Source: a virus (Duplodnaviria > Heunggongvirae > Uroviricota > Caudoviricetes). Taken from it: a DNA stretch of 44,513 nt. Positions 2,060 to 23,572 of this stretch are shown here, one piece after another. Location of the stretch: IMG/VR virus record IMGVR_UViG_2703718788_000013. One strand, 5' to 3'. The notes beneath the pieces were generated by a model, which had not been told where the DNA came from, made no database searches, and saw nothing but the letters and a program-made list of their open reading frames with translations. Within the stretch, counting starts at the first letter, position 1. Each line of letters begins with the position of its first letter. Made by a program: the position numbers and the translations under genes.

Positions 2060-2268
2060 CAGATTGCACCAAAATTCGGCTCTACCTCGCGCGGTGGTAA
2101 AGTTTTATTGCAGGTAAATAGATCCCGGCTGACAATCGGTTTGCCACTACGATTGGTATAGAACGGAAGCCCGTTTTCCATTAACCATTTTCGCTGGTGG
2201 CTTGCATATTTGCAGCCCGTTAATATTAGCAATTCATCTTCGGTTAAAAATAAGCTGCTCATAGCCAT
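2059..2268 (-). CDS. xis: Excisionase-like small DNA-binding protein
   Basis: 69-aa ORF immediately upstream of int on the same strand with overlapping stop/start; composition typical of excisionase/DUF4224-like proteins. Confidence 0.65.
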   Translation of the reverse strand: MAMSSLFLTEDELLILTGCKYASHQRKWLMENGLPFYTNRSGKPIVSRDLFTCNKTLPPREVEPNFGAI

Positions 2269-2320
2269 ATCTCATAACCGCCGCTAACTATATACGGTTA
2301 GCGGCAATTAGGGTTGAACA

Positions 2321-4792
2321 TTAAAAATCAGCCTGACTCGGGATCAGTTTTTGCCAGATAGCTGAAACGTATTTTGCTTGGTAACGAGCGTCATCAAGTG
2401 CATTATGGCGCTCACCTTCGAATGGGATAGCAGTTCTGGCATCGAAGTCTATGGCTTTCCCCAGCTCAACGATTGTGCGTATATCGCGATCGTTGTAGTA
2501 ACGCCACGGGCAGGGGATCCCCTGCCGTTCGTATGAACGGCGCAAAATCGTGTTGTCGAAGTTTGCTCCATTTCCCCAGACCTGAACAAAAAATTCACCG
2601 GAGTTTTCGTCGATAAATTCCCGCAATTGTAACAGTGCATCATCTAACGGGATTTCATCGGTCATAATGGCAGATTGCGCTTCGCGTGATTGCTTAAGCC
2701 ACCATTTAATGGTGTCCCGATCAATGACTCCGCCAGCAGTTTCCAGATCGACAGTCTTACTAAATTCCGGTCCCATATCTCCGGTTTGCGGATCGAAAAA
2801 TATTGCACCTATTGAGATAATCGGGGCATCAGGATTTTTTCCCATGGTTTCAAGGTCGATCATCAGATGAATCCCCGCTCTGCTGGTGGATGTGAGATTA
2901 TGATGACCGTTCATCTTAATTAAGGGATCTGACGCCTCGCCAGTTTCACTATCGCTGGCATGATGCTGATTGCCGCCAGTGTTCTCCTTGTGCTGATGCG
3001 CAGTGCCTTCCATTTCCTCCGGAACATTTTCCTGAACTTCAGGCTGATTCTCTTCATCGAATATTTCCTGGTATGTTGCGTCGCCCATCACCGCACCACA
3101 ATCAGGGCAGCTACCGCCGCCGGTCTGACCGCAGGCGGTGCAGGCTTTTTCCGGCTCCTGTTGCGCTACTGGTTCAACCTGTTTCGTTTCTGGCTCGTTT
3201 TGTTGCGCATTTGGGCTGTTTTGTTCCGTTTTTTGGTCGTTCTGTTCCGATTCTTGCTGGTTCTGGTTTACAGAGTCGCGGGTTTCAATCCCCTTCACCC
3301 ATTTCGGATCATTCGGGTCGCTAATCCCTGCAACAAATTCTCCGCGAGAGGCAGCAAGCAACTTATCGGCGTCAGGCTGGCTGATATTGGCTGCCTGCAT
3401 AATTTTGTTTACTTCTTCAGCGGTAACTTTTACCGGCTCTGGTTGTGCGGTCGTGTCAGATGCACCAGTATTTTGTTGTGAACCTGAGTATGTACTGTTT
3501 TTGCGGGCAAAATATTCTTCTTTCGTGATTTCAGTAGCCCCTGCAGTCAGCGCCTTATTCAGACCAGAAAGTTTGTTTGCGCGACCATATTTTTCGCCAT
3601 CCTTATCTGTGAAGAGGAAGTAGAACGGCCCTTCACGCTCTACAGATGGTTCGACTTCCACTTTGCATTCGGTTTTTTCGTTGTCCGGAATTGCCGTTTC
3701 CACTGCATCAGTTTCTGGTACTGGCGACGAGAGAGTATCAGTTGCGCTCTGATTTGTTCCTTCATCTTCAAACACGCCCTTTGTAGTCAGATATTCAGTA
3801 ATGTATTTGTTCAGTGCCACAGGGGTTTTGTGAATGTCGATCGGACGTTCACGGACAAGGCCAAAAATAGTCTGGCGGTCGTAGCGAAGGGCATCAGGCT
3901 GTTTGCGCATTGATGCCGAGATACGCTTCCAGTCTTCGCGGTCGTTGTCGATAACTTCATTTTTTGCCCAGCGATGGATGCTGCCGTCAATGTTTCCGGC
4001 ATCAATGTCACCAGGCCACAGAGCGTAGGCCAGTTCATCATCCAGTGTTTTCCATGTCTGCTTGTATTCGCGACGAATGGTGGCAGTGGCTGGGGGGATT
4101 TTCGCTACTGAGTTTTCAGTGTTCTGCCGGTTGACTCTGGCGCGGGCAAGATCAACAACAGACGTGTATTTCCCGGTTTCTTTGCGTTCGGCTTCGCGAC
4201 GTTTTTTCCAGGTGCGTAATTCTGTCTGGATCTCAGGCCATTTTGCTCCCGGCTTACATTTATGTTTAACCCACCCGATGGCGAGCAGCTTGAGCTCTGA
4301 ATACATGACGTTAACTTCAGGCATTTTCATCAATGCCTCAACGATATGCCCGTCGAATGTTGCCATGTCCTCCTGCAGTAATTCCTGAGCACTAATCACC
4401 ATATCAACGGTGATGTTTTCACATGTACCGAACTTAACCAGGACCGCGTTCTGTACTTCAAGGGACAGCTTGTTAAAATTGACGTTCATCGGATCGGATT
4501 CTGGTTCGACCGGAATAAAGGAAGCGGATTCCTCATCCCAGCGGTTTTCCTGCATATATTCGGTATCCCAGGAGTCGATAGCAGGGCGGGGCATGCCGGG
4601 TTTATCCTCGCAGACAAGAAATTTATAAGCGCAGTCCTGAGCAGCCGGATATTGCTCCAGGAATTGCCAGGTAAATTTGGCACGGGCGCGGCGTTCGTCA
4701 CCGGCTTCAATGGCAGTGGCTACAGCAATTGCACCTTCTTCCTTTATTGCCTGTTCGTCCGGAATGGCGGCGCAAATAAAGACTTTACTCAT
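2321..4792 (-). CDS. Large exonuclease-family protein with C-terminal DnaQ-like DEDDh 3'-5' exonuclease domain (RecE position)
   Basis: 823-aa ORF, GAGG ribosome-binding site 10 nt upstream; C-terminal motifs IDLETMG (Exo I), WGNGANFD (Exo II), HNALDDA (Exo III); central acidic/Q-rich linker with CxxC...CxxC (CTACGQTGGGSCPDCG). Confidence 0.8.
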   Translation of the reverse strand: MSKVFICAAIPDEQAIKEEGAIAVATAIEAGDERRARAKFTWQFLEQYPAAQDCAYKFLVCEDKPGMPRPAIDSWDTEYMQENRWDEESASFIPVEPESDPMNVNFNKLSLEVQNAVLVKFGTCENITVDMVISAQELLQEDMATFDGHIVEALMKMPEVNVMYSELKLLAIGWVKHKCKPGAKWPEIQTELRTWKKRREAERKETGKYTSVVDLARARVNRQNTENSVAKIPPATATIRREYKQTWKTLDDELAYALWPGDIDAGNIDGSIHRWAKNEVIDNDREDWKRISASMRKQPDALRYDRQTIFGLVRERPIDIHKTPVALNKYITEYLTTKGVFEDEGTNQSATDTLSSPVPETDAVETAIPDNEKTECKVEVEPSVEREGPFYFLFTDKDGEKYGRANKLSGLNKALTAGATEITKEEYFARKNSTYSGSQQNTGASDTTAQPEPVKVTAEEVNKIMQAANISQPDADKLLAASRGEFVAGISDPNDPKWVKGIETRDSVNQNQQESEQNDQKTEQNSPNAQQNEPETKQVEPVAQQEPEKACTACGQTGGGSCPDCGAVMGDATYQEIFDEENQPEVQENVPEEMEGTAHQHKENTGGNQHHASDSETGEASDPLIKMNGHHNLTSTSRAGIHLMIDLETMGKNPDAPIISIGAIFFDPQTGDMGPEFSKTVDLETAGGVIDRDTIKWWLKQSREAQSAIMTDEIPLDDALLQLREFIDENSGEFFVQVWGNGANFDNTILRRSYERQGIPCPWRYYNDRDIRTIVELGKAIDFDARTAIPFEGERHNALDDARYQAKYVSAIWQKLIPSQADF

Positions 4793-4915
4793 TTTGTTTT
4801 AACCTCATGACATATTTAAGGATGAACAAATCCCTGCCATTGCTGGCATATAAGAATCAAATCTGATGTATTCATTAAGCTGAATGTCGTATTGTGGCAG
4901 TTATTTTATTACTGC

Positions 4916-5137
4916 TCACCATGACTCTGCTTTTACAGGTAAACCATCACGACCAAGGAAGACTTTTATCATGGTTTCCTTAATACAGTGTTGTGTGGAA
5001 AAATCACGAATATAGAGCCGTTGTTTTTTAATGTTGTTTACCGAAGCAATATATGTTCTTCCTTTATGAATAACATAATCACCGGGAGTCACGCACTGAC
5101 GAGGAATCTCATCAGTTCCGAAGTGATGAGCAATCAT
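4916..5137 (-). CDS. KilR-like small protein (putative cell-division inhibitor), 73 aa
   Basis: ORF-track 4916..5149; GGAG ribosome-binding site favours internal ATG at 5137 ([12 protein letters not shown]...); size and position next to exonuclease gene match Rac kilR; identity recalled from memory only. Confidence 0.5.
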
Positions 5138-5311
5138 AATTATCTCCATTTTTACAAATGAACTTTGTTGATGCGGTGCCTGGTGCCTCCAGGTGACGTT
5201 AACCAGTTAACAATTAACGCCGGATACAGAGAATCCACCCATAACACTGTTTTTGGTTTTAACTGTTCCGCGTGCGCTTAGCCGCATTCACCGCATCACA
5301 AAATTCACTTT

Positions 5312-5369
5312 AAAAAGGGCGGCAGAGCAGTCACGGAGTAAAACTGATACCGCCAAACGCCACCAGAAA
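5312..5369 (-). ncRNA. dicF: DicF-like small RNA (ftsZ translation inhibitor family) with intrinsic terminator
   Basis: Minus-strand sequence TTTTCTGGTGGCGTTTGGCGGTATCAGTTTTACTCCGTGACTGCTCTGCCGCCCTTTTT matches the remembered E. coli DicF sequence with one mismatch; GGCGG...CCGCC stem then U-run; no ORF in the region. Confidence 0.7.
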
Positions 5370-5705
5370 ATTGATAACAGAGGGCGTTGTAGCGGGGTTG
5401 TCACTTAAGCGTATGGTCAACCTGACAACCCGGTGTCCTCAACGGGGAAGGAATAACCCCGCCATACTTACCGCCGCGCCATTTCGCGGAGTGCCACAAC
5501 CGGAAGCGCACGGTCGAATTAAATTTAACGACACCGTACAGAGAGACCAATTTCGCCGTGCGCTTTCGCGTTATGCCTTGGCTTTTCAGGGATATATCCT
5601 TTCAGTAAACTGTCAGTACCGGATTCTTATCCGTGTCCGGCGCACGACCACACGTGACAGCGTGTTGGTCTCCATTTTTAACCCAGAACCTCAATGGAGG
5701 ATAAA

Positions 5706-5915
5706 ATGCCAAACAAAAAAAGAAATCCGCTTATTGAAAAACAGATTGAATGCCTGGTAAATCAACTCAGGCAATCAGGGTTATTAAAAACTCATTCAGA
5801 GTTGAGGCTCACAGAATCAGCATTCGACGATAAATTAAATAATGTCCTTTATAATGGCATTATTGATTTTAATCGTTCTGTTGGTCGCCGCGGCCCTGCT
5901 GGTGTTTCCTTATAA
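5706..5915 (+). CDS. Hypothetical 69-aa protein, encoded antisense to the early-left operon
   Basis: ATG at 5706 preceded by GGAGG 5 nt upstream; ORF-track 5694..5915. Confidence 0.45.
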   Translation: MPNKKRNPLIEKQIECLVNQLRQSGLLKTHSELRLTESAFDDKLNNVLYNGIIDFNRSVGRRGPAGVSL

Positions 5916-6554
5916 TTACCAGTCAATCCAGAGCGGACCGTGTTCAGCGTAAATATAACTGTACACATCCAGATTATATTTGTGGTCTGTTAAGAACAGG
6001 CCGCAAATACATGCCGAAGCTTCCAGGGCAGCGGCTCTGTTACTGAATAACCATGTAGCAACATTCCAGCGTTTTTCTGCATCCCAGTCTTTCTCAAGGC
6101 CTGATACCATGAAGAAACCGTTAGTGTTGCCATCAAATAATTCTGTTTCCAGATTTTTAAGCAATGCCTGATGGACTCTTGCCAGGTATTCCGCCGGAAT
6201 TTCGCCACGAATTCTGATGAGATTGTCATAAACAAACATGTTCCCCGCATATGGCGATTTTTCTTTCTTGTTTTTTAAACCAGCATCATGAGCAAACTGA
6301 TCAATTTCTTCTTCCGTTGGTTTCGTATTGATGTTTTGCGCTGTCGTTTCTGCAATTTTATTTGCCACACTCTCTGAGTCGTGTTTATTTACAGACGCAC
6401 AGAAATACAATCCGGTAAACGCATCGCGCACATTACGAGCCATATTATCAGTGTCTTTTTTCGTTACCGATTCCAATGCAAGTTCGTTCAGACGATGACG
6501 AAGTGTGTGTGCTGCAATCTCCTGGATTGAAGTAGGTAAATCTTTAAATTCCAT
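5916..6554 (-). CDS. Hypothetical early-left protein, 212 aa
   Basis: ORF-track 5916..6566; ATG at 6554 (MEFKDLPTSIQ) has GAGG 7 nt upstream and follows the stop of the upstream ORF. Confidence 0.6.
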   Translation of the reverse strand: MEFKDLPTSIQEIAAHTLRHRLNELALESVTKKDTDNMARNVRDAFTGLYFCASVNKHDSESVANKIAETTAQNINTKPTEEEIDQFAHDAGLKNKKEKSPYAGNMFVYDNLIRIRGEIPAEYLARVHQALLKNLETELFDGNTNGFFMVSGLEKDWDAEKRWNVATWLFSNRAAALEASACICGLFLTDHKYNLDVYSYIYAEHGPLWIDW

Positions 6555-6565
6555 CGTCAACCTCA

Positions 6566-6796
6566 TCAGTCAGAGTTTCTTGCTAACCAGCGATGCGCGC
6601 CAGCTTCGGTTTTAAACGTTTTACTTTTGGTATACGTCATCGCGGTGAACGTGCCGTCCTGGTTGGGAAACACGCCGTACACCAGAGATTCGTTGTTGCC
6701 AAGATCGATAGTATCCATGCTGACCTCATTTCCCCTTAACGCCGGGGTAGCGGAACAAAAACCTGCTGCATAGTTAAAGTTGAACCCTGCCGTCAT
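6566..6796 (-). CDS. Hypothetical early-left protein, 76 aa (first gene after putative pL)
   Basis: ORF-track 6566..6796 minus; tightly coupled to downstream ORF. Confidence 0.5.
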   Translation of the reverse strand: MTAGFNFNYAAGFCSATPALRGNEVSMDTIDLGNNESLVYGVFPNQDGTFTAMTYTKSKTFKTEAGAHRWLARNSD

Positions 6797-6899
6797 GTTC
6801 TTACGCCTCGGGCTGGCTACTTAACCCCTGACCACTGCCTGGTAACTCGAAGTATTGCCCTGCGTGCTGTGGGGCGGGGTGGGTTGGTATGTTGTCAAG

Positions 6900-6913
6900 G
6901 TAACAAGAGTTAC
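6900..6913. promoter_or_regulatory. OL-like operator, GTAAC-N4-GTTAC palindrome
   Basis: GTAACAAGAGTTAC between repressor gene end and first early-left ORF; same motif as the two sites in the cI-cro intergenic region. Confidence 0.5.
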
Positions 6914-6955
6914 CGGAAAAGTCAATGAGATGTTGCAAAAGGTACATACAGGAGC

Positions 6956-6981
6956 GCAAAAAACCCGCAATGAATGCGGGT
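6956..6981 (-). terminator. Intrinsic terminator downstream of repressor gene
   Basis: Minus-strand AACCCGCA / TGCGGGTT 8-bp stem followed by TTTTTT, just after repressor stop. Confidence 0.6.
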
Positions 6982-6987
6982 TCTGAC

Positions 6988-7662
6988 TCAGTCTAAATAT
7001 TGATGTATTTGTGAAACTTTACCTTTAATAGTGTAACCACCATTCAGTTCAATGGGTTTGTAAAGCGGATTCAGTGACAGCAGATAGATGTTTGGTCCGT
7101 CAATCGCAACTTTTTTTAGTGTTACGTTCGGCGTTCCTTCCAATTGGATTAAGATTATTTTTCCCACCAGTTCTCTAATGTTACTTGAGCATGGCGTGAT
7201 CAGCACGGTAGATCCGTCGGGGATGGTTGGGAGGCCGTTAGAGTTCGTCATCGCATCTCCCTCAACGCGCAATAAAAAAGAGTTTTCAGCGGTTTTTGTC
7301 ATGACATCAACCCAATTCTTAATACCAGGAATCTCGGTTACTGGGCAACTCATATCCCAATAACCAGCCTGTTCCCACGTTAAAACGGGCAACCGGGCGA
7401 TGTTGTCACTAATGTAAAGGTACTGATTCAGACGCAGATCGTCGGTTTTATCGTGACCATCCTTTCCATAAAGAATCCATTCAGGAGATTTGGAAAGCAA
7501 TTTTGACAGCAGATGCAAATTCTCACCGTCAGGTTTTGAAGAGCCATTTTCCCATTTTGTTACGGATACGCGAGATATGCCGATTGCTTTCGCAACCTGC
7601 TGTTGAGTTAGTCCAACGTCTTTTCGACGATTCCGAATACGTTCGCTGATAGTGTTTTTCAT
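6988..7662 (-). CDS. cI: CI-like repressor (HTH_XRE N-terminal domain plus S24 LexA-like C-terminal domain)
   Basis: ORF-track 6988..7761; C-terminal region aligns by eye with lambda CI (VEGDAMT versus VEGNSMT, TLKKV versus TFKKL, QAG linker); start placed at ATG 7662 to leave a 91-bp operator region before cro (ATG 7704 is an alternative). Confidence 0.8.
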   Translation of the reverse strand: MKNTISERIRNRRKDVGLTQQQVAKAIGISRVSVTKWENGSSKPDGENLHLLSKLLSKSPEWILYGKDGHDKTDDLRLNQYLYISDNIARLPVLTWEQAGYWDMSCPVTEIPGIKNWVDVMTKTAENSFLLRVEGDAMTNSNGLPTIPDGSTVLITPCSSNIRELVGKIILIQLEGTPNVTLKKVAIDGPNIYLLSLNPLYKPIELNGGYTIKGKVSQIHQYLD

Positions 7663-7724
7663 GTAACCAATGTTACCACCAAGTGATGTTACTGTGGTTG
7701 ACATCTTTATGTAACTATTGTTAC
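7663..7724. promoter_or_regulatory. OR-like operator region with GTAAC-N4-GTTAC palindromes between cI and cro
   Basis: GTAACCAATGTTAC at 7663-7676 and GTAACTATTGTTAC at 7711-7724, plus a GTTAC half-site near 7688; divergent cI/cro starts flank it. Confidence 0.55.
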
Positions 7725-7753
7725 CCTTTTGTTCGAAATAACAGGAGAGTTTT

Positions 7754-7969
7754 ATGTTCAAAGATGATGTTCTGCGCTATTTCAAAAAAAAGCGACTAGT
7801 AGCTGAGGCTCTTGGAATTTCACATGTGGCTGTTGTGCGGTGGAAAGCAGTTATTCCCAAACTTCGCGCAATGGAGCTGGATGAAATTACTAACGGTGAA
7901 TTGAAATACAATCCAGAACTTTACAAGAAGCAGGATAGCACCTCGAACGAAGGAAAGAATGATTCATGA
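7754..7969 (+). CDS. cro: Cro-like small HTH regulator
   Basis: 71-aa ORF divergent from cI, AGGAG ribosome-binding site at 7743-7749; HTH-like segment RLVAEALGISHVAVVRWK. Confidence 0.7.
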   Translation: MFKDDVLRYFKKKRLVAEALGISHVAVVRWKAVIPKLRAMELDEITNGELKYNPELYKKQDSTSNEGKNDS

Positions 7970-8391
7970 AAATCAAGCATGAACACATCCGCATGGCGAT
8001 GAATGCCTGGGCGCATCCGGACGGCGAAAAAATACCGGCTGCGAAAATTACCAAAGCGTATTTCGAACTGGGAATGACGTTCCCGGAACTGTATGACGAC
8101 AGCCATCCGGAAGCTCTGGCTCGCAATACTCAGAAAATTTTCCGCTGGGTAGAGAAAGACACCCCTGATGCAGTTGAAAAAATTCAGGCGTTGTTACCAG
8201 CGATCGAAAAGGCAATGCCACCTTTGCTGGTGGCCAGAATGCGCAGCCACAGTTCAGCTTATTTTCGGGAGCTGGTGGAAACGCGGGAGCGATTGGTGAG
8301 AGACGCTGATGATTTTGTCGCAGTGGCAATCGCCGGTTTCAATCAGATGAACCGTGGTGGCCCGGCAGGAAATGCTGTGGCAGTACATTGA
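7966..8391 (+). CDS. YdaT-like protein (CII-position regulator)
   Basis: 141-aa ORF translationally coupled to cro (ATGA overlap); N-terminus MKIKHEHIRMAMNAW resembles Rac YdaT as remembered. Confidence 0.5.
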   Translation: MKIKHEHIRMAMNAWAHPDGEKIPAAKITKAYFELGMTFPELYDDSHPEALARNTQKIFRWVEKDTPDAVEKIQALLPAIEKAMPPLLVARMRSHSSAYFRELVETRERLVRDADDFVAVAIAGFNQMNRGGPAGNAVAVH

Positions 8392-8462
8392 CTGACAATA
8401 GCCATATCGAATCGCTTCCGGCAACTCGTGAGTAAAAAGATTCGGTATCAGAAGAGGTGAGT

Positions 8463-9533
8463 ATGGCTAACGCCTGGCTCAGATTATGGCATGACATGCC
8501 GAATGACCCTAAGTGGCGAACAATTGCCAGGGTGTCAGGGCAGCCAATTGCAACAGTGATGGCAGTGTATATCCACCTCCTGGTGAGCGCGTCACGAAAT
8601 GTCACGCGAGGTCACATTGATGTCACGACAGAAGATTTGGCAAGTGCGCTCGACGTGACAGAAGAGGTAATTGATTCAATTTTGCAGACGATGCAGGGGC
8701 GGGTACTTGATGGTGATTTAATCACTGGATGGGAAAAACGCCAGGTGCTGAAAGAGGACAACGGCAATATTTCGCAAACCGCAAAATCTCCTGCAGAGCG
8801 CAAGAGGGCGCAGCGAGAGAGGGAAAGAAAGCGGGAACAAAATGGCGATTGTCACGGCGCGTCACGAAATGTCACGCACATGTCACGACGAGTCACGACA
8901 GATAAAGATACAGATAAAGATACAGATAAAGAAGATCAAAACACTATGGTCCATGGCGTAAAAAACGCCACGAACCAGGCAGGGGATGTTCAGTCCGTCA
9001 ATCCTGGTCAGCCAGCAGGCACGACACCGGAAGCCGATTCAGCGTATGCGCTGAAAGCCGATTCGGGCGCTGTGCAGCAGGTGATGACCGCAAGGCCGGA
9101 GCAATCACTCCAACTGCAGCAGCCTGAAGCCGATTCCGCCATTCAGCGGGAGGCCGAGCGGGTAGCCCCGGAAAACACCGGGCAGCCTGTGGGACGAGTG
9201 GATTATCCAGAAGTGTTCGAACAGGTCTGGCGGGAATACCCGTTGCGTGCCGGGGCAAACCCGAAGAAATCCGCTTTCAGTGCCTGGAAGGCCAGATTAC
9301 GCGAGGGGGTGCCACCAGAGGCCATGCTAGATGGTGTGAGGCGTTACGCAAGATACCTGGCGGCTACCGGGAAAACGGGAACGGAATTTGTTCAGCGAGC
9401 GACGACGTTTTTTGGACCGGACCGGAATTTTGAAAACCCCTGGTTGCTCCCGGTAAGCGGTACGAACAACCAGCGTTGCGTGAATCACATTTCTGAACCA
9501 GATACCGAAATTCCACCGGGCTTCAGGGGGTAA
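8463..9533 (+). CDS. Replication initiation protein (O-like), with origin repeats inside the coding sequence
   Basis: 356 aa from ATG 8463 with GAAGAGG upstream; positioned after the cro/cII-like genes; contains two iteron clusters and an AT-rich repeat. Confidence 0.65.
   Translation: MANAWLRLWHDMPNDPKWRTIARVSGQPIATVMAVYIHLLVSASRNVTRGHIDVTTEDLASALDVTEEVIDSILQTMQGRVLDGDLITGWEKRQVLKEDNGNISQTAKSPAERKRAQRERERKREQNGDCHGASRNVTHMSRRVTTDKDTDKDTDKEDQNTMVHGVKNATNQAGDVQSVNPGQPAGTTPEADSAYALKADSGAVQQVMTARPEQSLQLQQPEADSAIQREAERVAPENTGQPVGRVDYPEVFEQVWREYPLRAGANPKKSAFSAWKARLREGVPPEAMLDGVRRYARYLAATGKTGTEFVQRATTFFGPDRNFENPWLLPVSGTNNQRCVNHISEPDTEIPPGFRG
8591..8934. repeat. Putative replication origin: two clusters of GTCACG iterons plus three tandem 11-bp GATAAAGATAC repeats
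   Basis: GTCAC(G/A) at 8591, 8601, 8611, 8623 and at 8851, 8861, 8871, 8882, 8892 with about 10-bp periodicity; tandem repeat at 8901-8934. Confidence 0.6.
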
Positions 9534-9573
9534 GTGTTTATTTCAGGTCACGAGGTAATTTTCAGGAGGACTT

Positions 9574-9996
9574 GTGGCAAAAGTTTTTACACAAGAAGAG
9601 CGAGAAAAAATTAAAGGGCAGGTTGTTGAACTCGTACGCCAGAGTGGGCGTGAGACGTTACGGCAACTGGAAGTCAAGACAGGTGCGACAAGATATCTGA
9701 TGAGCGTTCTCGCAAGAGAGCTGGTTGCCAGCGGCGATGTATACAACTCTGGTTACGGGTTATTCCCGTCTGAACAGGCGCGTAAGGACTGGCAAAATGC
9801 CCGTAAAAAGCTCTCAAGGGCAAAGCTGAAGAAACCATCTGCGGTTGATCCGGACCTTATCTGGTCATTACCTGATGGAGAAATACGTCGTTACGACAGG
9901 CGTCATAATATAATTTGTACTGAGTGTCGTAAAAGCGAAGTTATGCAGCGCATATTGTCGTTTTATCAGGGGGATGTTCGGTATTTATTGAAGTGA
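9574..9996 (+). CDS. Hypothetical 140-aa protein
   Basis: GTG start at 9574 with AGGAGG 5 nt upstream; occupies the position where lambda carries the helicase loader. Confidence 0.55.
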   Translation: MAKVFTQEEREKIKGQVVELVRQSGRETLRQLEVKTGATRYLMSVLARELVASGDVYNSGYGLFPSEQARKDWQNARKKLSRAKLKKPSAVDPDLIWSLPDGEIRRYDRRHNIICTECRKSEVMQRILSFYQGDVRYLLK

Positions 9997-10238
9997 CGAG
10001 ATTAAAATGCATTAGTTAAGATGTGAATTGACATTTTGTGGCACAGGATAGAGCTAGCGTGGTTGTCCGCTTTGTGCCAAAAGCGGACGTTAAGCTTACC
10101 AACTCATATTTTAAGGTCATAGGTGCGTATAAACGAAGTACCACGCTTAGGAGTAGTGAATTTACAGACTTACAAAATCATTTATTTCAGGCCAATTTAT
10201 GTAATGGCATAATCAGGTTGGTGAAAGAGAGGGCTGAA

Positions 10239-10823
10239 ATGGATAAAAAATCTAAAAATCAGATAGTAGATAGCGATATTGCACGTTTATTGCTTAAACA
10301 TAGGAAGGCTCGCAATTTGACTGTAACAGAGCTTGCTCAACGATCGGGCGTCAGTCAGGCCATGATTAGTAAGATTGAACGAGGCATCTCCAGCCCTAGT
10401 GCAACTATCCTTAGCCGCCTGGCCAACGCCATGAATGTAACGCTATCTAAACTCTTTGCAGAGCTTGAGCAACATCAGAATTCTCTGGTTCGTTTTGCTC
10501 ATCAGCAACAGCACTGGACGGATGAGCAATCAGGCATCACTCGTTGGTCTTTGTCTCCTGCGGGGGCATGCCCGGAACTGATCAAAGTTGAAATTCCTGC
10601 AATGGGTGAGTTGACGATACCCGCCTCCGCAAATGAGCATCTTTCCGGGCAAACGCTTTGGGTGATGAGTGGTAGCCTTGATTTTCGAGTCAAAAATCAG
10701 ACCCATCATTTACGTGCCGGTGACTGTCTTGCCCTTACCTTTGCAAGCGAGTACCAAATGAGCAATCCAGATAGTGAGCAGAGCTGTTCTTACATCGTGG
10801 CTTTTAGCCAAAAAAATCAATGA
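10239..10823 (+). CDS. Transcriptional regulator, HTH_XRE N-terminus plus cupin-like C-terminal domain
   Basis: ORF-track 10038..10823; ATG at 10239 (MDKKSKNQ); HTH segment LTVTELAQRSGVSQAMISKIERG. Confidence 0.7.
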   Translation: MDKKSKNQIVDSDIARLLLKHRKARNLTVTELAQRSGVSQAMISKIERGISSPSATILSRLANAMNVTLSKLFAELEQHQNSLVRFAHQQQHWTDEQSGITRWSLSPAGACPELIKVEIPAMGELTIPASANEHLSGQTLWVMSGSLDFRVKNQTHHLRAGDCLALTFASEYQMSNPDSEQSCSYIVAFSQKNQ

Positions 10824-10843
10824 TATCTTCTCTGCCACATTGG

Positions 10844-11287
10844 TTACATGTTATTGGCCATTCTCAGATGCAACAAGGGGTATGGCCTTCCCTGATTATC
10901 CAGATCGGAACGCCCTGATACCTGAAACCCCATATGCTGATAAAACCCTACAGCCTGCTGGTTTTGTTCATTTACATCAACGCTTAGCTCTGGATGCAGC
11001 GCCAGTGCATGAGAGATCAAACGTTTTCCGACGCCAAGTCCGCGAGCAGAGCCTGCTACAAAAAGTGCCTCCAGATGGCCCTTATGCAAAAACATAAATC
11101 CTAGCGGTTGGTCATCCTGATTTGTTGCAACCCATACAGGAGTTTCTGAGAAAAAGCCGACAACTTCTTTTTCGATTTCTTGTCGGTCATGACCTGTAAG
11201 AAAGTCGTGGGTAGCATCCACTGAACTCTTCCAGATTTGTATGATCTCATCTGCTTCAGATGGTCGTGACATTCTGATATCTAACAT
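10844..11287 (-). CDS. GNAT-family N-acetyltransferase
   Basis: 147-aa ORF with acetyl-CoA binding-like segment (ARGLGVGKRLI); convergent with the HTH-cupin gene. Confidence 0.7.
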   Translation of the reverse strand: MLDIRMSRPSEADEIIQIWKSSVDATHDFLTGHDRQEIEKEVVGFFSETPVWVATNQDDQPLGFMFLHKGHLEALFVAGSARGLGVGKRLISHALALHPELSVDVNEQNQQAVGFYQHMGFQVSGRSDLDNQGRPYPLLHLRMANNM

Positions 11288-11685
11288 TTTTCAACCTTAG
11301 AGTGAACTTTATTTTGTGTAATAACGAACGAAAAGAACTTACTTTAATTTACTATAGTAAAATGATATTCACAATAGTATTTGTGATTTCTATGCCTTAT
11401 CAACGTGATGAGAAGTGCTAAGTTAGTCTGATCCTCTTTATCATCATCAACGACAATGTTCCTGAGCTTTATCACATTGAATGTCCGCTTCTCGCTCAAA
11501 GCGGACTAGAAGGTTAGCTTGCGTCGGACTTGGCGTATTTAAAGAAGTGCTGGTGGTGACTGGTTGTCGTGTTCCATTTCTACAGAACAAAATCACAGAA
11601 ACTATACCCAATAGTTGTATTGAATCACTGACGAGACAGCCTCATATTTATCAGGACTGGTGTACGTCCAATACAGGAGGTTGTG

Positions 11686-11775
11686 GTGCTGGTTCTCAAA
11701 TGTGCGCTGGCTATTGCTGCTGTAATGGCAATTTATTGCCTTGCTGTTGTTCTTATGGATCGCCTTTCTGACTGA
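11686..11775 (+). CDS. Candidate small hydrophobic membrane peptide (about 29 aa)
   Basis: AGGAGG at 11675-11680 then GTG; product VLVLKCALAIAAVMAIYCLAVVLMDRLSD; overlaps in another frame the Cys-rich 96-aa ORF-track call 11481..11771. Confidence 0.3.
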   Translation: MLVLKCALAIAAVMAIYCLAVVLMDRLSD

Positions 11776-11986
11776 TTTCATATTGGCGAGGTAACGGTAG
11801 TTAAGTAGAATGGCTGTGGGTGCTTGAGGCTATCTGCCTCGGGCATGAACACCAACGGCAGATAGAGAAAAGCCCCAGTTAACATTACGCGTCCTGCAAG
11901 ACGCTTAACATTAATCTGAGGCCAATTTCATGCTAGACACATGTAGGTTAGCCTCTTACGTGCCGAAAGGCAAGGAGAAGCAGGCT

Positions 11987-12142
11987 ATGAAGCAGCAAAA
12001 GGCGATGTTAATCGCCCTGATCGTCATCTGTTTAACCGTCATAGTGACGGCACTGGTAACGAGGAAAGACCTCTGCGAGGTACGAATCCGAACCGACCAG
12101 ACGGAGGTCGCTGTCTTCACAGCTTACGAACCTGAGGAGTAA
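11987..12142 (+). CDS. hok: Hok/Gef-family type I toxin
   Basis: 51-aa product MKQQKAMLIALIVICLTVIVTALVTRKDLCEVRIRTDQTEVAVFTAYEPEE, near-identical to remembered HokD/RelF; AAGGAGAAG ribosome-binding site; 8-bp hairpin at 12151-12170. Confidence 0.85.
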   Translation: MKQQKAMLIALIVICLTVIVTALVTRKDLCEVRIRTDQTEVAVFTAYEPEE

Positions 12143-12309
12143 GAGACCAGGCGAGGGAGAAATCCCTCGCCACCTTTGATGTGTCAGGCATCCTCAACGC
12201 ACCCGCACTTAACCCGTTTCGGCGGGTTTTGTTTTTTCCTGGCATTCTGGTTTACAATTCGCACGCCAGCCTGAACAACTGGCACCTGCTGCGCCAGCAG
12301 AGACAGCCG

Positions 12310-12588
12310 ATGGCGCACGATACCAAATTACACTATTCTGATGATTCTGCCGTCTTTGCCAGCAGGTGTGGACGGCGTTTTCACGCATTCAAATCGGACT
12401 GGTTCCAGCATCCTCCATGCACTGAAGAGCAGGCTGAATGGATAATTCAGTGTTACCGCAGGCGCGGATACGAGGTTAAGAAAGCCCTCAGCCTCGATTA
12501 TCGTCACTGGATAATCTCCGTCAGGCTTCCTTACTCCGAACGCCCACCGCGTCCGTCCCGCACATTCCAGCAACGAATCTGGAGGTAA
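12310..12588 (+). CDS. Rem-like hypothetical protein
   Basis: In-frame ATG at 12310 (MAHDTKLHYSDD) within ORF-track 12181..12588; gene order hok - this ORF - DUF968 mirrors Qin hokD-rem-ydfU. Confidence 0.45.
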   Translation: MAHDTKLHYSDDSAVFASRCGRRFHAFKSDWFQHPPCTEEQAEWIIQCYRRRGYEVKKALSLDYRHWIISVRLPYSERPPRPSRTFQQRIWR

Positions 12589-12589
12589 C

Positions 12590-13645
12590 GTGCGGGTATT
12601 ACTTCGACCTGTTCTGGTACCGGAACTCGGGCTGGTGGTCCTTAAGCCAGGTCGTGAATCCATGCAGGTATTTCACAATCCTCGAGTGCTGGTGGAGCCG
12701 GAACCGAAAAGCATGCGTAATCTGCCGTCCGGGGTCGTTCCTGCCGTTCGCCAGCCGCTGGTGGAAGACAAAACATTGCTGCCGTTTTTCAGTAACGCAC
12801 GGGTGATTCGTGCTGCTGGTGGTGCTGGTGCATTGTCTGACTGGCTGTTGCGCCATATTAAATCCTGCCAGTGGCCACACGGCGATTATCATCACAGCGA
12901 AACCGTCATTCACCGTTATGGTACCGGCGCAATGGTGTTGTGCTGGCACTGCGACAACCAGCTGCGTGACCAGACATCCGAATCACTCGAGCAACTTGCT
13001 CATCAAAACCTGTCAGCATGGATGATTGACGCCATCGGTCACGCAATAAGCGGTACGCAGGAGCGTGAATTATCTCTGGCTGAATTATCCTGGTGGGCGG
13101 TCCGCAATCAGGTGGCGGACGCGCTACCGGAAGCGGTATTACGTCGTTCGCTGGGGTTGCGTGCGGAAAAAATCCGCTCAATGTACCGTGAAAGCGACAT
13201 CGTACCGGGAGAGCAGACCGCCACCAGCATACTGAAGCAGCGCACAAAAAATCTTGCGCCGCTGCCTCACGCCCACCAGCAAAACCCGCCACAGGAAAAG
13301 ACGGTGGTCAGCATTGCCGTTGATCCGGAGTCACCGGCTCAGTATCTCCAGCGCCAGAAACCACAACGGGAAGAGATGCCTGTATACACGCGCTGGGTAA
13401 AAACGCAGAAATGCATGACGTGCGGTAATCAGGCAGATGATCCGCATCACATCATTGGTCATGGACTGGGAGGGATGGGAACAAAGGCTGATGATTTGTT
13501 TGTTATTCCGCTGTGCCGCAAATGTCATAACGAACTGCACGCCGGGGTAAAAGATTTTGAAGAAAAACACGGCAGCCAGCTGTTGTTGCTGATTCGTTTT
13601 TTAATGCACGCGAGAAATTCGGGTGTCTTGAAGTGGAAAGCATGA
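12590..13645 (+). CDS. DUF968/YdfU-like protein with C-terminal HNH-like motif
   Basis: GTG start with GGAGG 4 nt upstream; C-terminus CMTCGNQADDPHHIIGH...CRKCHNELH. Confidence 0.7.
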   Translation: MRVLLRPVLVPELGLVVLKPGRESMQVFHNPRVLVEPEPKSMRNLPSGVVPAVRQPLVEDKTLLPFFSNARVIRAAGGAGALSDWLLRHIKSCQWPHGDYHHSETVIHRYGTGAMVLCWHCDNQLRDQTSESLEQLAHQNLSAWMIDAIGHAISGTQERELSLAELSWWAVRNQVADALPEAVLRRSLGLRAEKIRSMYRESDIVPGEQTATSILKQRTKNLAPLPHAHQQNPPQEKTVVSIAVDPESPAQYLQRQKPQREEMPVYTRWVKTQKCMTCGNQADDPHHIIGHGLGGMGTKADDLFVIPLCRKCHNELHAGVKDFEEKHGSQLLLLIRFLMHARNSGVLKWKA

Positions 13646-14011
13646 ATGACTGAACGCATAGAATTTGTTTTGCCTTACCCGCCGACGGTGAATACTTACT
13701 GGCGACGTCGTGGCAACACATATTTTGTATCAAAAGTCGGTGAGCGTTATCGCCGTGATGTGGCGCTAATTGTTCGCCAGCAGCGGCTGAAATTAAACCT
13801 GTCCGGAAGGCTGGCGATAAAGATTATTGCAGAGCCACCGGATAAGCGCCGTCGTGACCTGGACAATATCCTGAAAGCACCACTGGATGCGCTGACGCAT
13901 GCCGGACTTCTCATAGACGACGAGCAGTTTGATGAAATCAATATTGTGCGCGGTCAGCTCGTTCCTGGTGGGCGGCTGGGGATAAAAATCACAGAACTGG
14001 AGTGCGCATGA
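13646..14011 (+). CDS. rusA: RusA-family Holliday junction resolvase
   Basis: 121 aa; conserved RRRDLDN region and size match RusA. Confidence 0.85.
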   Translation: MTERIEFVLPYPPTVNTYWRRRGNTYFVSKVGERYRRDVALIVRQQRLKLNLSGRLAIKIIAEPPDKRRRDLDNILKAPLDALTHAGLLIDDEQFDEINIVRGQLVPGGRLGIKITELECA

Positions 14012-14697
14012 ATAGCCAGTATTTACAGTTTGTGCGTGAGCAGCTCATTATCGCCACCGCTGATTTGAGTGGGGCAACAAAAGGTCAGCTTGAAGCCTGG
14101 CAGGAGAATGCCATGTTCGATACAGGGCGTTACAGGCGTAAAAAAATCCGGTACCGGGATGAGGTGACTGGAAAAATGATAACGCGGGATAATCCACCAA
14201 TCCCGGGAAAACAATCACTGGCGAAGGGGACGTCAATTCCTCTGGTCAGTCCGGTTGAGTTTTCGACATCATCGTGGCGGCGGGCTGTTCTGTCTCTTGA
14301 AGAACATCATAAAGCCTGGTTGTTGTGGTGTTACAGCGGGAATATTTGTTGGGAATATCAGATCGCGATAACACAGTGGGCGTGGAATGAATTTAATACT
14401 CAATCCGGTACCAGAAAAATTGCAGGGAAAACGCAGGAACGCCTGAAAAAATTAATCTGGCTGGCGGCGCAGGCAGTAAAAGCAGAACTTTTGGGTGGGG
14501 AAGGTTATGAATACCAGGAGCTGGCATTACTGGCGGGAGTGACAACTAAAAACTGGTCCAAAACATTTACTCGTCACTGGGTTGCAATGAAACACATTTT
14601 TTACCGACTGGATAGTGAGGCTTTATTGTTTGTAATGAGAACACGTTCAAAACAAAAGGCGGCATTTTCAAAGCAAAGTGTTGCAAAAGTAGATTGA
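14008..14697 (+). CDS. Late-gene antiterminator Q-like protein
   Basis: 229 aa; overlaps rusA stop (ATGA); immediately upstream of a promoter-plus-terminator unit of the PR'/tR' type. Confidence 0.7.
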   Translation: MNSQYLQFVREQLIIATADLSGATKGQLEAWQENAMFDTGRYRRKKIRYRDEVTGKMITRDNPPIPGKQSLAKGTSIPLVSPVEFSTSSWRRAVLSLEEHHKAWLLWCYSGNICWEYQIAITQWAWNEFNTQSGTRKIAGKTQERLKKLIWLAAQAVKAELLGGEGYEYQELALLAGVTTKNWSKTFTRHWVAMKHIFYRLDSEALLFVMRTRSKQKAAFSKQSVAKVD

Positions 14698-14709
14698 AAG
14701 GCATATATT
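14681..14709 (+). promoter_or_regulatory. PR'-like late promoter
   Basis: -35 TTGCAA at 14681-14686, 17-bp spacer, -10 TATATT at 14704-14709, at the 3' end of Q. Confidence 0.5.
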
Positions 14710-14762
14710 TCATGCAAATCTGATATTTTGCCGATTTTGTACGTGATGGCAAAAGCAAACAA

Positions 14763-14788
14763 AACCCGCCCACAAGCGGGTTTTTTTG
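14763..14788 (+). terminator. tR'-like intrinsic terminator
   Basis: CCCGC CCACAA GCGGG hairpin followed by TTTTTTT, about 55 nt downstream of the PR'-like -10. Confidence 0.75.
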
Positions 14789-14869
14789 TGCCACTTATCT
14801 CGGATAGACATGGTGAATGCGCTGGTGGAGGAAGTAAGGGTGATTTTTAATCAGGTGATTTTTGAATGC

Positions 14870-14898
14870 TTGCAACATTGATTTCGTAACGTTATTAT
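14870..14898 (+). promoter_or_regulatory. Sigma70-type promoter for the tRNA array
   Basis: -35 TTGCAA at 14870-14875, 17-bp spacer, -10 TATTAT at 14893-14898, ending 9 nt before tRNA 1. Confidence 0.5.
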
Positions 14899-14907
14899 CC
14901 TGCACCC

Positions 14908-14983
14908 GGCCCTTTAGCTCAGTGGTGAGAGCGAGCGACTCATAATCGCCAGGTCGCTGGTTCAAATCCAGCAAGGGCCACCA
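14908..14983 (+). tRNA. tRNA with CAT anticodon, ileX-like (tRNA-Ile2 or Met)
   Basis: 76-nt cloverleaf, acceptor GGCCCTT/AAGGGCC, anticodon loop CTCATAA, CCA end; resembles remembered E. coli ileX. Confidence 0.8.
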
Positions 14984-14984
14984 A

Positions 14985-15061
14985 CCGCCACTAGCTCATC
15001 AGGAAAGAGCGTCAACCCTTTAAGTTGAGTGTGCGAGGTTCGAGTCCCCGGTGGCGGTCCA
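14985..15061 (+). tRNA. tRNA-like gene, apparent anticodon TTT (Lys-like), non-canonical features
   Basis: Acceptor CCGCCAC/GTGGCGG, anticodon stem TCAAC/GTTGA, loop CCTTTAA (C at position 33), T-loop TTCGAGT, CCA end; A-C mismatch in T-stem. Confidence 0.55.
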
Positions 15062-15063
15062 GT

Positions 15064-15139
<76 letters not shown>

Positions 15140-15142
15140 TAT

Positions 15143-15217
<75 letters not shown>

Positions 15218-15380
15218 GTATTTATCTGCATATTTCCTTTTGAGTCCCGTTTTGTTAGAGGTATTGGGCTGTTGACGGGGCTGATATCCACTCTCCACCT
15301 TTCAGGGAGATAGGATTTAAGGAGCCAACCGGTTAGAGTCTGCTTTGTTCCTAACCAGTTGGTTATGTTATTTGAGATGG

Positions 15381-15944
15381 TTAGTTTTTATTCGCCGTCC
15401 ATTTACCACAAATTGGTCTGGAGAAGATTGCCAGAATGGCAATAAAGGATATTTCAATTGAAACAGACCAGCATATATGTCCAATCAGTTCGCTCCAGAA
15501 TTCATAGCCGTTTAGATTCCATAGCCACCCTCTTTCATGGCCGGGAAGATACGCGGGAAATCTGAAGCCCAGCGCGGGTATTAAAATACCATGCATGACT
15601 AATGTAATAAGAATTCCATATACAGCCCCATACCACATGCGGACTCGTGGAATAAAAACAGACAGGTATATGTATACAAAGGCAAAAATGAAACTAAAAA
15701 GCCAATGATAGAGCATAACAGCTCCGGGAATTGTTACTCCCTGGTAAATGTAATCCAGCGAGTGTGAATTTATTCCCAGAAAACCCAACCAGGCGTCGAT
15801 ATTCATTGCTGGTGGAGAAATTTCTCCGGCCATTCTTGGGGGCATGTTAGCTTCAGTTCCTGATTTCACCAGAGAGCTGATCGCGCCACCGACCAGTGTT
15901 GCCCAAAGTATGATTTTTAGATTTACGCTATTCCATTTACACAT
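15381..15944 (-). CDS. YagU-like inner membrane protein (DUF1440 family), moron
   Basis: ORF-track 15381..16223; ATG at 15944 (MCKWNSVNLKIILWATLVGG) has GAGG 7 nt upstream; several hydrophobic segments; ELIGHICWSVSIEI resembles the YagU motif; antisense to late transcription. Confidence 0.65.
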   Translation of the reverse strand: MCKWNSVNLKIILWATLVGGAISSLVKSGTEANMPPRMAGEISPPAMNIDAWLGFLGINSHSLDYIYQGVTIPGAVMLYHWLFSFIFAFVYIYLSVFIPRVRMWYGAVYGILITLVMHGILIPALGFRFPAYLPGHERGWLWNLNGYEFWSELIGHICWSVSIEISFIAILAIFSRPICGKWTANKN

Positions 15945-16228
15945 AAACAACCTCTTGTTTGTTGGGTTGGGGTTATCATACATGACTGCTTGTTGCGATT
16001 TTGTATCGCAATGTTTCTGTTTGTTGTCTTTTGTGTTGTTTGTCTCTTTAGTGTTCTGTGTGTGACTATGTACATTCTGTATAGTGGGGGCTCCCGTTGG
16101 TGCAGAGAATAACGAAATCTGAAAATAACCGTTTTCAGTTGTGGCGCTCGCAACAAAAGCGCATGCTGACTGTGCGAAGATAATCTCGCTGTGACGAGTA
16201 ATCTCGAACGTCATTGTTTTCATTTATG

Positions 16229-16255
16229 CCAGCTACCCAAAGCTGGCTTTTTTTG
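16229..16255 (+). terminator. Intrinsic terminator-like hairpin upstream of lysis cassette
   Basis: GCCAGCT ACCCAA AGCTGGC followed by TTTTTTT; further weaker hairpin/T-run elements at 16496-16518 and near 16598-16620. Confidence 0.55.
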
Positions 16256-16659
16256 AGGTCTGCTCCGGCAGGCTTTTTTTATTCCGGCATATATAACTAT
16301 GGAGTATTGCGACAACCTGATAAAAGTCTGCATATCGCGATCCAACGGTAGAAGCGATAAACGGGCTGAGCGATATGTTTCCAGAGGAGAAGAGGTTGAG
16401 CGATACGAAGAAACAGCTAAGTATATTAAGAGAATGTTAATGTGCTTCATTGCTGATCAGAAGCTATCGGGATAATCATCAGTTTTTTGTATTGAGGCTC
16501 GCTACGGCGGGCCTTTTTCACATCCGCGTCACGCCCGGCGCACATCACATCAGATAACGCTATACAAAAGGCATCTTCGGGTGCCTTTGATGGGGGGGCG
16601 GGCCGCTGGTGGCTTTTTTTGTTTCCATTACACAGCCCCCGCATCTGCGAGGTGGGGTT

Positions 16660-16875
16660 ATGAAATCCATGGATAAGTTAACAACGGGTGTCGCCTATGG
16701 CACCTCAGCAGGTAGTGCCGGGTACTGGTTTTTACAGTTGCTCGATAAAGTCACGCCCTCACAGTGGGCGGCAATAGGTGTGCTGGGTAGTCTGGTATTT
16801 GGCTTGCTGACGTATCTGACAAACCTTTATTTCAAGATTAAAGAAGATAAGCGTAAGGCTGCGAGAGGTGAATAA
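16660..16875 (+). CDS. Class II holin (phage 21 S-type pinholin)
   Basis: 71 aa MKSMDKL... with dual-start motif and two hydrophobic segments; very similar to remembered S21. Confidence 0.9.
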
Positions 16876-17372
16876 TGTCGCCATCATTACGCAAGGCTGT
16901 TGCTGCTGCTATTGGTGGTGGGGCTGTTGCCATAGCGTCTGTGCTCATCACTGGTCCGAGTGGTGACGATGGTCTGGAAGGTGTCAGCTACATACCATAC
17001 AAAGATATCGTTGGCGTATGGACTGTATGTCACGGACACACCGGAAAAGACATCATTCCCGGTAAAACGTATACCGAAGCAGAATGCAAAGCCCTCCTGA
17101 ATAAAGACCTTGCCACGGTCGCCAGACAAATTAACCCGTACATCAAAGTCGATATACCGGAAACAACGCGCGGCGCTCTTTACTCGTTCGTTTACAACGT
17201 GGGTGCTGGTAATTTCAGAACATCGACGCTTCTTCGCAAAATAAACCAGGGCGATATCAAAGGCGCATGTGATCAGCTACGGCGCTGGACATACGCTGGC
17301 GGTAAGCAATGGAAAGGGCTGATGACTCGCCGTGAGATTGAGCGTGAAGTCTGTTTATGGGGGCAACAATGA
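16875..17372 (+). CDS. SAR endolysin (lysozyme with N-terminal signal-anchor-release domain)
   Basis: 165 aa; N-terminus [23 protein letters not shown]; start overlaps holin stop (TAATG). Confidence 0.9.
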
Positions 17373-17836
17373 GCAGAGTTACCGCGATTATCTCCACACT
17401 GGTTATCTGCATCATCGTCTGCCTGTCGTTGGCGGTCAATCATTACCGTGATAATGCCATCGCCTACAAAGAACAGCGTGATAAAAAAGTCAGTGAGCTG
17501 AAGCAGGCGATCGCCACCATCGCTGACATGCAGCAGCGTCAGCGTGATGTTGCTGCGCTAGATGCAAAGTACTTGAGAGAATTAGCCAATGCGAAAGCTG
17601 AAAATGAAACTCTGCGCGCTGATGTTGCCGCTGGTCGTAAGCGCCTGCGGGTCAATGCCAGTTGCTCCGCAGCCGTGCGTGAGGCCACCGGCCCCACCCG
17701 CGTGGATAATGCAACCAGCCCCCGACTGGCAGACACCGCTGAGCGGGATTATTTCACCCTCAGAGAACGGCTGATGACAATGCAAAAGCAACTGGAAGGG
17801 GCACAGGAATATATCCGTACCCAGTGTATACCGTGA
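17369..17836 (+). CDS. Rz-like inner-membrane spanin
   Basis: ATG at 17369 overlapping endolysin stop; N-terminal transmembrane segment then coiled-coil-like sequence. Confidence 0.85.
17589..17774 (+). CDS. Rz1-like outer-membrane lipoprotein spanin, embedded in Rz in the +1 frame
   Basis: 61 aa with lipobox VVSAC and proline-rich mature part; entirely inside Rz. Confidence 0.85.

Positions 17837-19885: not shown

Positions 19886-23572
<3,687 letters not shown>

Follow-up and report, generated by a model that had tools for sequence, protein, structure and literature searches.

Genetic organization of the locus

The window, i.e., the whole 44,513-nucleotide stretch of IMG/VR record IMGVR_UViG_2703718788_000013, is an E. 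coli lambdoid prophage that is ~97% identical to the "PPompW" prophages. At the locus of interest (Table 1), the rusA gene is immediately followed by the antiterminator gene Q. The 3' end of Q overlaps a first promoter (P1, hereafter pR'), which precedes an intrinsic terminator (tR'), a second promoter (P2, hereafter pT), and an array of four tRNA genes. The late genes lie on the same strand, downstream of pR', beginning with the lysis cassette; a YagU-family gene in the reverse orientation stands between the tRNAs and the latter. The segment 14600-14920, which spans both promoters, is 100% identical to strain 377323_2f, and copies covering at least 80% of it were found in 887 of 5426 complete E. 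coli genomes. For annotation purposes, the unit would mark the onset of late transcription in a prophage type carried by about one sixth of the complete E. coli genomes.

Table 1. Position of the genes and predicted control elements in the window.
Feature	Position	Strand	Basis or remark
Q antiterminator gene, 229 amino acids, phage 82 family	14008-14697	+	Pfam PF06323; PGAP "bacteriophage antitermination protein Q"
pR' -35 hexamer TTGCAA, within the final codons of Q	14681-14686	+	Near-invariant in 20 diverged loci, 1.90 bits/column
pR' 17-nt spacer with the Q stop codon; putative position of the QBE	14687-14703	+	Spacer length invariant
pR' -10 hexamer TATATT	14704-14709	+	1.48 bits/column across 20 loci
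Predicted pR' start (+1, A), ~3 nt uncertainty	14716	+	7th base past the -10; sets GCC at +15-17
Pause element: TG (+6, +7), -10-like TATTTT (+9 to +14), GCC (+15 to +17)	14721-14732	+	Fits the description of phage 82 pR'
Leader hairpin 1 (UUUUGCC ... GGCAAAA)	14726-14754	+	In the minimum-free-energy fold of the leader
Predicted promoter-proximal pause site (+25 T, +26 A)	14740-14741	+	From the numbering of phage 82 pR'
tR' intrinsic terminator, also terminator-like on the - strand	14761-14788	+	Fold and scan; counterpart in every homologous locus
pT-type promoter: TTGCAA (14870-75), 17-nt spacer, TATTAT (14893-98)	14870-14898	+	Aligns with 933W pT
G+C-rich discriminator / very short leader CCTGCACCC	14899-14907	+	9 nt in 55 of 59 distinct variants
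tRNA array: Ile2-type (CAU), Lys (UUU), Thr (UGU), Gly (UCC)	14908-15217	+	ARAGORN, Rfam; PGAP names the first tRNA-Ile
YagU-family / DUF1440 membrane protein gene	15381-16223 (PGAP 15381-15944)	-	Between tRNA cassette and lysis genes
Two tandem intrinsic terminators (16228-47 and 16255-76)	16228-16276	+	Scan; between tRNA cassette and lysis genes
Terminator just ahead of the holin gene	16600-16615	+	Scan
Lysis cassette (essD-like holin, rrrD-like lysozyme, Rz-like), first late genes	16660-17836	+	ORFs, PGAP names

The antiterminator Q belongs to the phage 82 family

The product of Q matches Pfam family PF06323 over profile positions 1-217 of 220 (E = 7e-92, 307 bits). This is the only Pfam family matched, and hence the protein falls outside PF03589, the family of lambda Q. 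PF06323 has been equated with the Q82 family (PMC9388147). The catalogued protein is the ATG-started form of 229 residues, the GTG-started ORF of 231 residues having no exact catalogue entry. A search of NCBIfam with Q returned no match. The mechanism of Q82-family antiterminators is called an open question in the literature, and a sequence search of the PDB yielded no structure for the family; the sole match, 1xov (E = 0.005), was dismissed as noise.

A profile search of viral contigs for distant relatives of Q retained only copies with 96-100% identity, and the diversity of Q was instead drawn from genome contigs and phage records. The resulting set comprises 13 genome loci (Q identity of 59-93%), phage Gifsy-1, and eight phage records in which Q identity goes down to 34%. 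The sampled loci are phylogenetically related and many are near-identical; 20 non-redundant sequences were used for the pR' alignment. This comparative set shows which cis-elements are conserved in the Q82 family.

The predicted late promoter, its pause element, and its terminator

The 20 loci align without any gap from the -35 hexamer to approximately +17, even at a Q identity of 34%. Besides the two hexamers (Table 1), the pause element is conserved at ~1.4 bits/column, as compared to 0.87 in the sequence preceding the -35 and 0.60 beyond +17. The promoter had been placed at the 3' end of Q in a preliminary description of this DNA and this position is correct, since the Q stop codon TGA (14695-14697) falls in its spacer; the qualifier "near-consensus" used there is generous for a pair of hexamers with 9 of 12 consensus matches, a score that pT shares. 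The Q-binding element (QBE) of phage 82 has been located between the -35 and the -10 (PMC4914094), and the pR' spacer may harbor its counterpart: its length is invariant and its sequence is partly conserved, but the latter is also constrained by the last codons of Q. The alignments with the Rfam isrJ and isrK models, described below, begin at 14713 and 14714, near the predicted +1.

The pR' promoter of phage 82 has been described to carry an extended -10-like pause element, GCC at +15-17, and an AT-rich stretch, with pausing at +25/+26 and a U at +25 (PMC5001585). When +1 is set at 14716, these four published features coincide with those in the window, as judged by description and numbering rather than by alignment: TG-n-TATTTT and GCC are followed by the AT-rich GATTTTG at +18 to +24, ahead of the T at +25. 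At the sequence level, the window thus exhibits a pause element of the Q82 type. Among the pR' homologues, TGATAT is near-invariant.

The strong terminator reported earlier at about 55 nt downstream of pR' is confirmed: tR' begins 52-56 nt past the -10. Its stem (14761-14784) is built around a CCCGC (14765-69) / GCGGG (14776-80) core, with seven T at 14781-14787 (-14.1 kcal/mol, z = -4.3, U7 tract); an intrinsic terminator shortly after the pause site is expected of a Q82-type unit. The terminator scan called it on the - strand only, presumably because it draws A/T pairs into the stem and thereby shortens the T tail of the + strand. In every homologous locus, an intrinsic terminator of unrelated sequence follows the pause region. 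The predicted leader (14716-14788, ~72 nt) folds into two hairpins (-22 kcal/mol, z = -3.1). In the consensus of eight homologues, hairpin 1 displays compensatory changes at three of its eight pairs, which lends modest support to it.

To note, some copies of the unit look decayed. A single nucleotide is deleted between -10 and +1 in E. coli ECMA0423 and Shigella flexneri (L003/L004, 2190-2290), whose terminator stem is also mutated (CCCTC), and the TG of the pause element is AG in another locus (L007, ~2230). On the - strand, the tR' hairpin could end a transcript of the YagU-family gene ahead of Q.

The predicted leader RNA resembles Salmonella IsrJ

The leader aligns with the whole Rfam isrJ model (RF01393, model positions 1-75 of 75, at 14713-14785) with a score of 24.5 bits, which is below the threshold of 37; a relaxed-threshold search also aligned it with the whole isrK model at 22.7 bits, for a threshold of 50. 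The homologous leaders of Raoultella, Citrobacter, and Klebsiella (L010, L011, and L009), located right after Q, reach 69.4, 70.5, and 38.3 bits with the isrJ model, respectively, and are above its threshold. In phage Gifsy-1 (L136, NC_010392, 2198-3121), TTGCAA-17-TATATT precedes isrJ, which begins ...AAATCTGATATCGTCGCC. There, isrK, a C4 antisense RNA with its a1/b1 targets, and the antirepressor gene anrP form a P1 immI-like module inserted between Q (named AntQ) and the isrJ promoter. Since isrK belongs to this separate module and possesses its own promoter, it was rejected as a homologue of the leader in favor of isrJ, the true counterpart. A short RNA identified by Northern blot and primer extension, with a promoter of its own (PMC2330248), IsrJ is therefore an expressed counterpart of the predicted leader.

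In the literature on IsrJ and IsrK, we found neither a description of IsrJ as a late-promoter leader nor a statement that the isrK/C4/antirepressor module is an insert between AntQ and the isrJ promoter. By its sequence, IsrJ looks like the late-promoter leader of Gifsy-1, which would alter the interpretation of this Salmonella "virulence sRNA". We tentatively suggest that the ~72-nt leaders may form an unrecognized and widespread RNA family, in which IsrJ would be the leader of a Q82-type late promoter and whose members might act in trans in the lysogen, as does StxS.

It is doubtful, and on balance improbable, that such an activity is the main purpose of the first unit, i.e., that its principal product is a trans-acting sRNA of the IsrJ family made in the lysogen, late control being secondary or lost in a possibly cryptic prophage. 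The leader does align across the whole isrJ model, homologous leaders exceed the Rfam threshold, and its hairpin displays compensatory changes; moreover, IsrJ affects Salmonella invasion (PMC2330248) and StxS, the leader associated with another Q type, is an Hfq-dependent regulator (PMC7547250). However, an sRNA function is compatible with a role in the late switch, and the pause element together with the intact Q and lysis genes favor a working switch. Furthermore, the leader is poorly conserved after +17, unlike a base-pairing regulator with a conserved seed. A functional late switch that releases a short leader is the preferred reading of this unit.

The tRNA cassette and its putative own promoter

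A scan for the 5' end of the first tRNA gene retrieved 120 viral contigs which, with the other loci, amount to 59 distinct upstream sequences. At least eight unrelated upstream contexts precede the cassette. They include Q82-type units, two other Q types, and an AraC-like gene; in stx2-carrying phages, the stop codon of a gene for a DNA methylase comes before it. Over 13 non-redundant contexts, conservation rises from 0.33 bits/column ahead of the -35 to 1.28 within this hexamer; the spacer has 1.14 and the -10, invariant at TAT(T/C)AT, reaches 1.93. As homology sets in at the -35 in unrelated contexts, the conserved mobile unit begins at this hexamer. In two of the contexts, those of the two other Q types, a terminator directly abuts the -35 of the cassette.

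The GenBank record of phage 933W (Plunkett) lists pR', qut, two terminators "upstream of the tRNA genes", and "pT; putative tRNA promoter". This pT is found at 21082-21110, 9 nt ahead of ileZ, and P2 aligns with it hexamer for hexamer. The homology extends into the genes: the segment 14843-15061 is ~90% identical to the ileZ-argN region of Stx2 phages, whose Q differs, and the 5' part of the ileZ-like first tRNA is invariant in the alignment with 933W. The array as a whole is Ile2-Lys(UUU)-Thr-Gly here, and not the Ile2-Arg-Arg of 933W. In the EHEC Sakai lysogen, a primary start site mapped by dRNA-seq in prophage Sp5 drives the corresponding tRNAs (PMC7547250). The second promoter had been positioned at 14870-14898, its -10 ending 9 nt before the first tRNA at 14908, and it had been proposed to express the tRNAs in the lysogen independently of Q. 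The position stands, and the homology of P2 to 933W pT, together with the Sakai data, makes Q-independent expression in the lysogen the best-supported reading by analogy.

Conversely, P2 might be nonfunctional, the conserved block being a 5' flank of the cassette retained, e.g., for processing, and the tRNAs being produced only from Q-modified pR' transcripts during lytic growth. The modest hexamer score of P2 and the lack of an intrinsic terminator close after the tRNA array are consistent with this proposal, as is the fair conservation of the spacer, which indicates that the block is conserved partly through common descent. Nevertheless, we consider it quite unlikely: conservation starts at the -35 and peaks at the invariant -10, with a fixed spacing in at least eight unrelated contexts, two of which have a terminator abutting the -35; and the counterpart of P2 is both named pT in the 933W record and the site of a primary start for the corresponding tRNAs in a lysogen.

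Promoters of stable RNAs possess a G+C-rich discriminator, comparable to CCTGCACCC in front of the first tRNA. The near-invariant gap of 9 nt and a C-rich discriminator followed by G would fit with pT transcripts starting at, or 1-3 nt from, the mature 5' end of this tRNA, an idea that we hold to be less likely than the existence of a leader RNA family. Were it true, processing of the first tRNA by RNase P would be nearly or wholly dispensable.

The second tRNA (14985-15061) bears a UUU (Lys) anticodon on the scaffold found at the same position in 933W argN (UCG) and in an Arg-UCU gene of another locus (L005). From its sequence, it looks like the result of an anticodon switch within the cassette.

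Promoter scores compared with chance expectation

Promoter-like hits at the 9/12 level occur seven times in a 4-kb region, for 6.4 ± 2.4 expected from shuffled sequences. Hexamer matches are therefore at chance frequency and do not constitute evidence alone; the case for both promoters rests on comparison. The top-scoring hit of the scan (15131-15158, TCGGCA-16-TATAAT, 10 of 12) was rejected as a promoter as it lies within the tRNA-Thr and tRNA-Gly genes, and it illustrates how little the hexamer score means when taken by itself.

Two findings exceed chance, namely the composite P1 motif and the fact that both units are conserved in diverged relatives. The composite motif has a single match in the window, for 0.02 expected, and it is present in 123 of the 127 loci with a Q82-type Q, as compared to 1 of the 95 loci without. 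The pR' unit is also intact in phage LLS (L224) and ahead of Gifsy-1 isrJ, in both cases outside the Q coding sequence, and hence its conservation is no by-product of the last codons of Q. The notion that P1 is a chance match conserved merely because it encodes the C-terminus of Q, which draws on the location of the -35 and half of the spacer within Q codons and on the chance frequency of 9/12 hits, is very unlikely, as the -10, the pause element, and GCC are conserved yet lie outside Q, the whole unit is kept away from Q coding in LLS and Gifsy-1, and the motif is associated with the Q82-type family.

From the tRNA cassette to the late genes

The terminator scan detected no canonical intrinsic terminator close behind the tRNA array. 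Four terminators on the + strand precede the holin gene, at 16228-47, 16255-76, near 16515, and 16600-15; unmodified transcripts from pT would end there, before reaching the lysis genes. To note, the sequence at ~16513-16535, GGCTCGCTACGGCGGGCCTTTTT, is similar to the terminator behind the tRNA genes of Stx2 phages (GGCTCGCTTTTGCGGGCCTTTTTT) and may represent the original 3' end of the cassette, displaced when the YagU-family gene was inserted. Late transcripts would be antisense to this gene.

Proposed mechanism

Taken together, these data make it very probable that the locus comprises two transcription units, a late switch of the phage 82 type and a tRNA cassette with a promoter of its own. 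The elements described above are homologous to annotated or experimentally mapped counterparts; start sites, pausing, Q binding, antitermination, and activity in this strain are proposed by analogy with the latter. In the lysogen, the sigma-70 promoter pR', overlapping the end of Q, would fire from a start near 14716. Sigma-70 would then hold the RNA polymerase at TG-n-TATTTT-GCC (+6 to +17), causing a pause near +25. In the absence of Q, transcription would stop at tR' and release the two-hairpin RNA of ~72 nt. After induction, Q would bind both the promoter DNA and the paused polymerase, and the Q-modified enzyme would pass tR' and, after the tRNA cassette, the four other terminators to reach the genes for lysis and morphogenesis. 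Independently of Q, the sigma-70 promoter pT would supply the lysogen with the four tRNAs, and its unmodified transcripts would end at the terminators before the lysis genes. Lysogens are predicted to contain a short RNA made constitutively and four tRNAs whose supply does not depend on Q.

Comparison with the closest known systems

The late control region of phage 82 is among the closest known counterparts of the first unit. Both share a Q of family PF06323, a promoter at the end of Q, and a short terminated leader and, according to the published description and numbering, the extended -10-like element, GCC at +15-17, the AT-rich stretch, and U at +25. The window differs by its -10-like hexamer, here TATTTT, and by the tRNA cassette and the reverse-oriented YagU-family gene located between tR' and the lysis genes.

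Phages 933W and Sakai Sp5 exhibit the order pR' - qut - tR' - pT - ileZ argN argO - stx2AB. The succession of late promoter, terminator, separate tRNA promoter, and tRNAs is the same in the window; there is homology in pT and in the first tRNA, and the -10 stands at an identical distance of 9 nt from the tRNA. In contrast, the Q of 933W is of another family (its record notes a similarity to the Q of H-19B and DLP12, and the literature groups it as Q21/Q933W), with a different pR'. The 933W leader (StxS) is 258 nt long instead of ~72 nt, its tRNAs are Ile2-Arg-Arg (CAU, UCG, UCU) instead of Ile2-Lys-Thr-Gly, and stx2AB follows the tRNAs, whereas no toxin genes follow those of the window.

In Gifsy-1, AntQ is 67% identical to the Q of the window. 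IsrJ resembles the window leader by the TTGCAA-17-TATATT that precedes it, by its pause element ...AAATCTGATAT..., and by its length of ~74 nt with a terminator, but the window leader remains below the 37-bit isrJ threshold. In Gifsy-1, moreover, the P1 immI-like module (isrK, C4 RNA, anrP) separates Q from the promoter.

The preliminary description had likened the locus to the lambda PR'/tR' arrangement. This holds in so far as it is a lambdoid late unit: in lambda, too, a constitutive late promoter is followed by a sigma-70-dependent proximal pause and an intrinsic terminator, and readthrough depends on Q. The exact type is however that of phage 82, as judged from the Q family, the pause position, and the leader length. 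Lambda Q belongs to the unrelated family PF03589; lambda pauses at +16/+17, the pause element of the window lying 8-9 nt further downstream; the lambda leader is 194 nt long, and lambda has no tRNA cassette. Both halves of the locus are thus of already known kinds, a 933W-like order with a phage 82-type switch and a different tRNA set, and no new mechanism is involved.

Other features of the prophage

The early region harbors a DicF RNA (5317-5368, - strand) and a sok/hokD toxin-antitoxin system (11818-11992, + strand), comparable to those of Qin/Rac-type prophages. Chi (GCTGGTGG) occurs at 14 sites in the window, for 1.7 expected, 12 of them on the + strand. They span 2193-16612, so that all lie within the first 16.6 kb and none in the other 28 kb. 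Four are at most 200 bp away from a DUF968 gene (12631-12822). The site at 14821-14828 falls in the interval from tR' to pT and has been retained in two diverged contexts (L005 and L118); that at 16605-16612 is within the stem of the terminator ahead of the holin gene.
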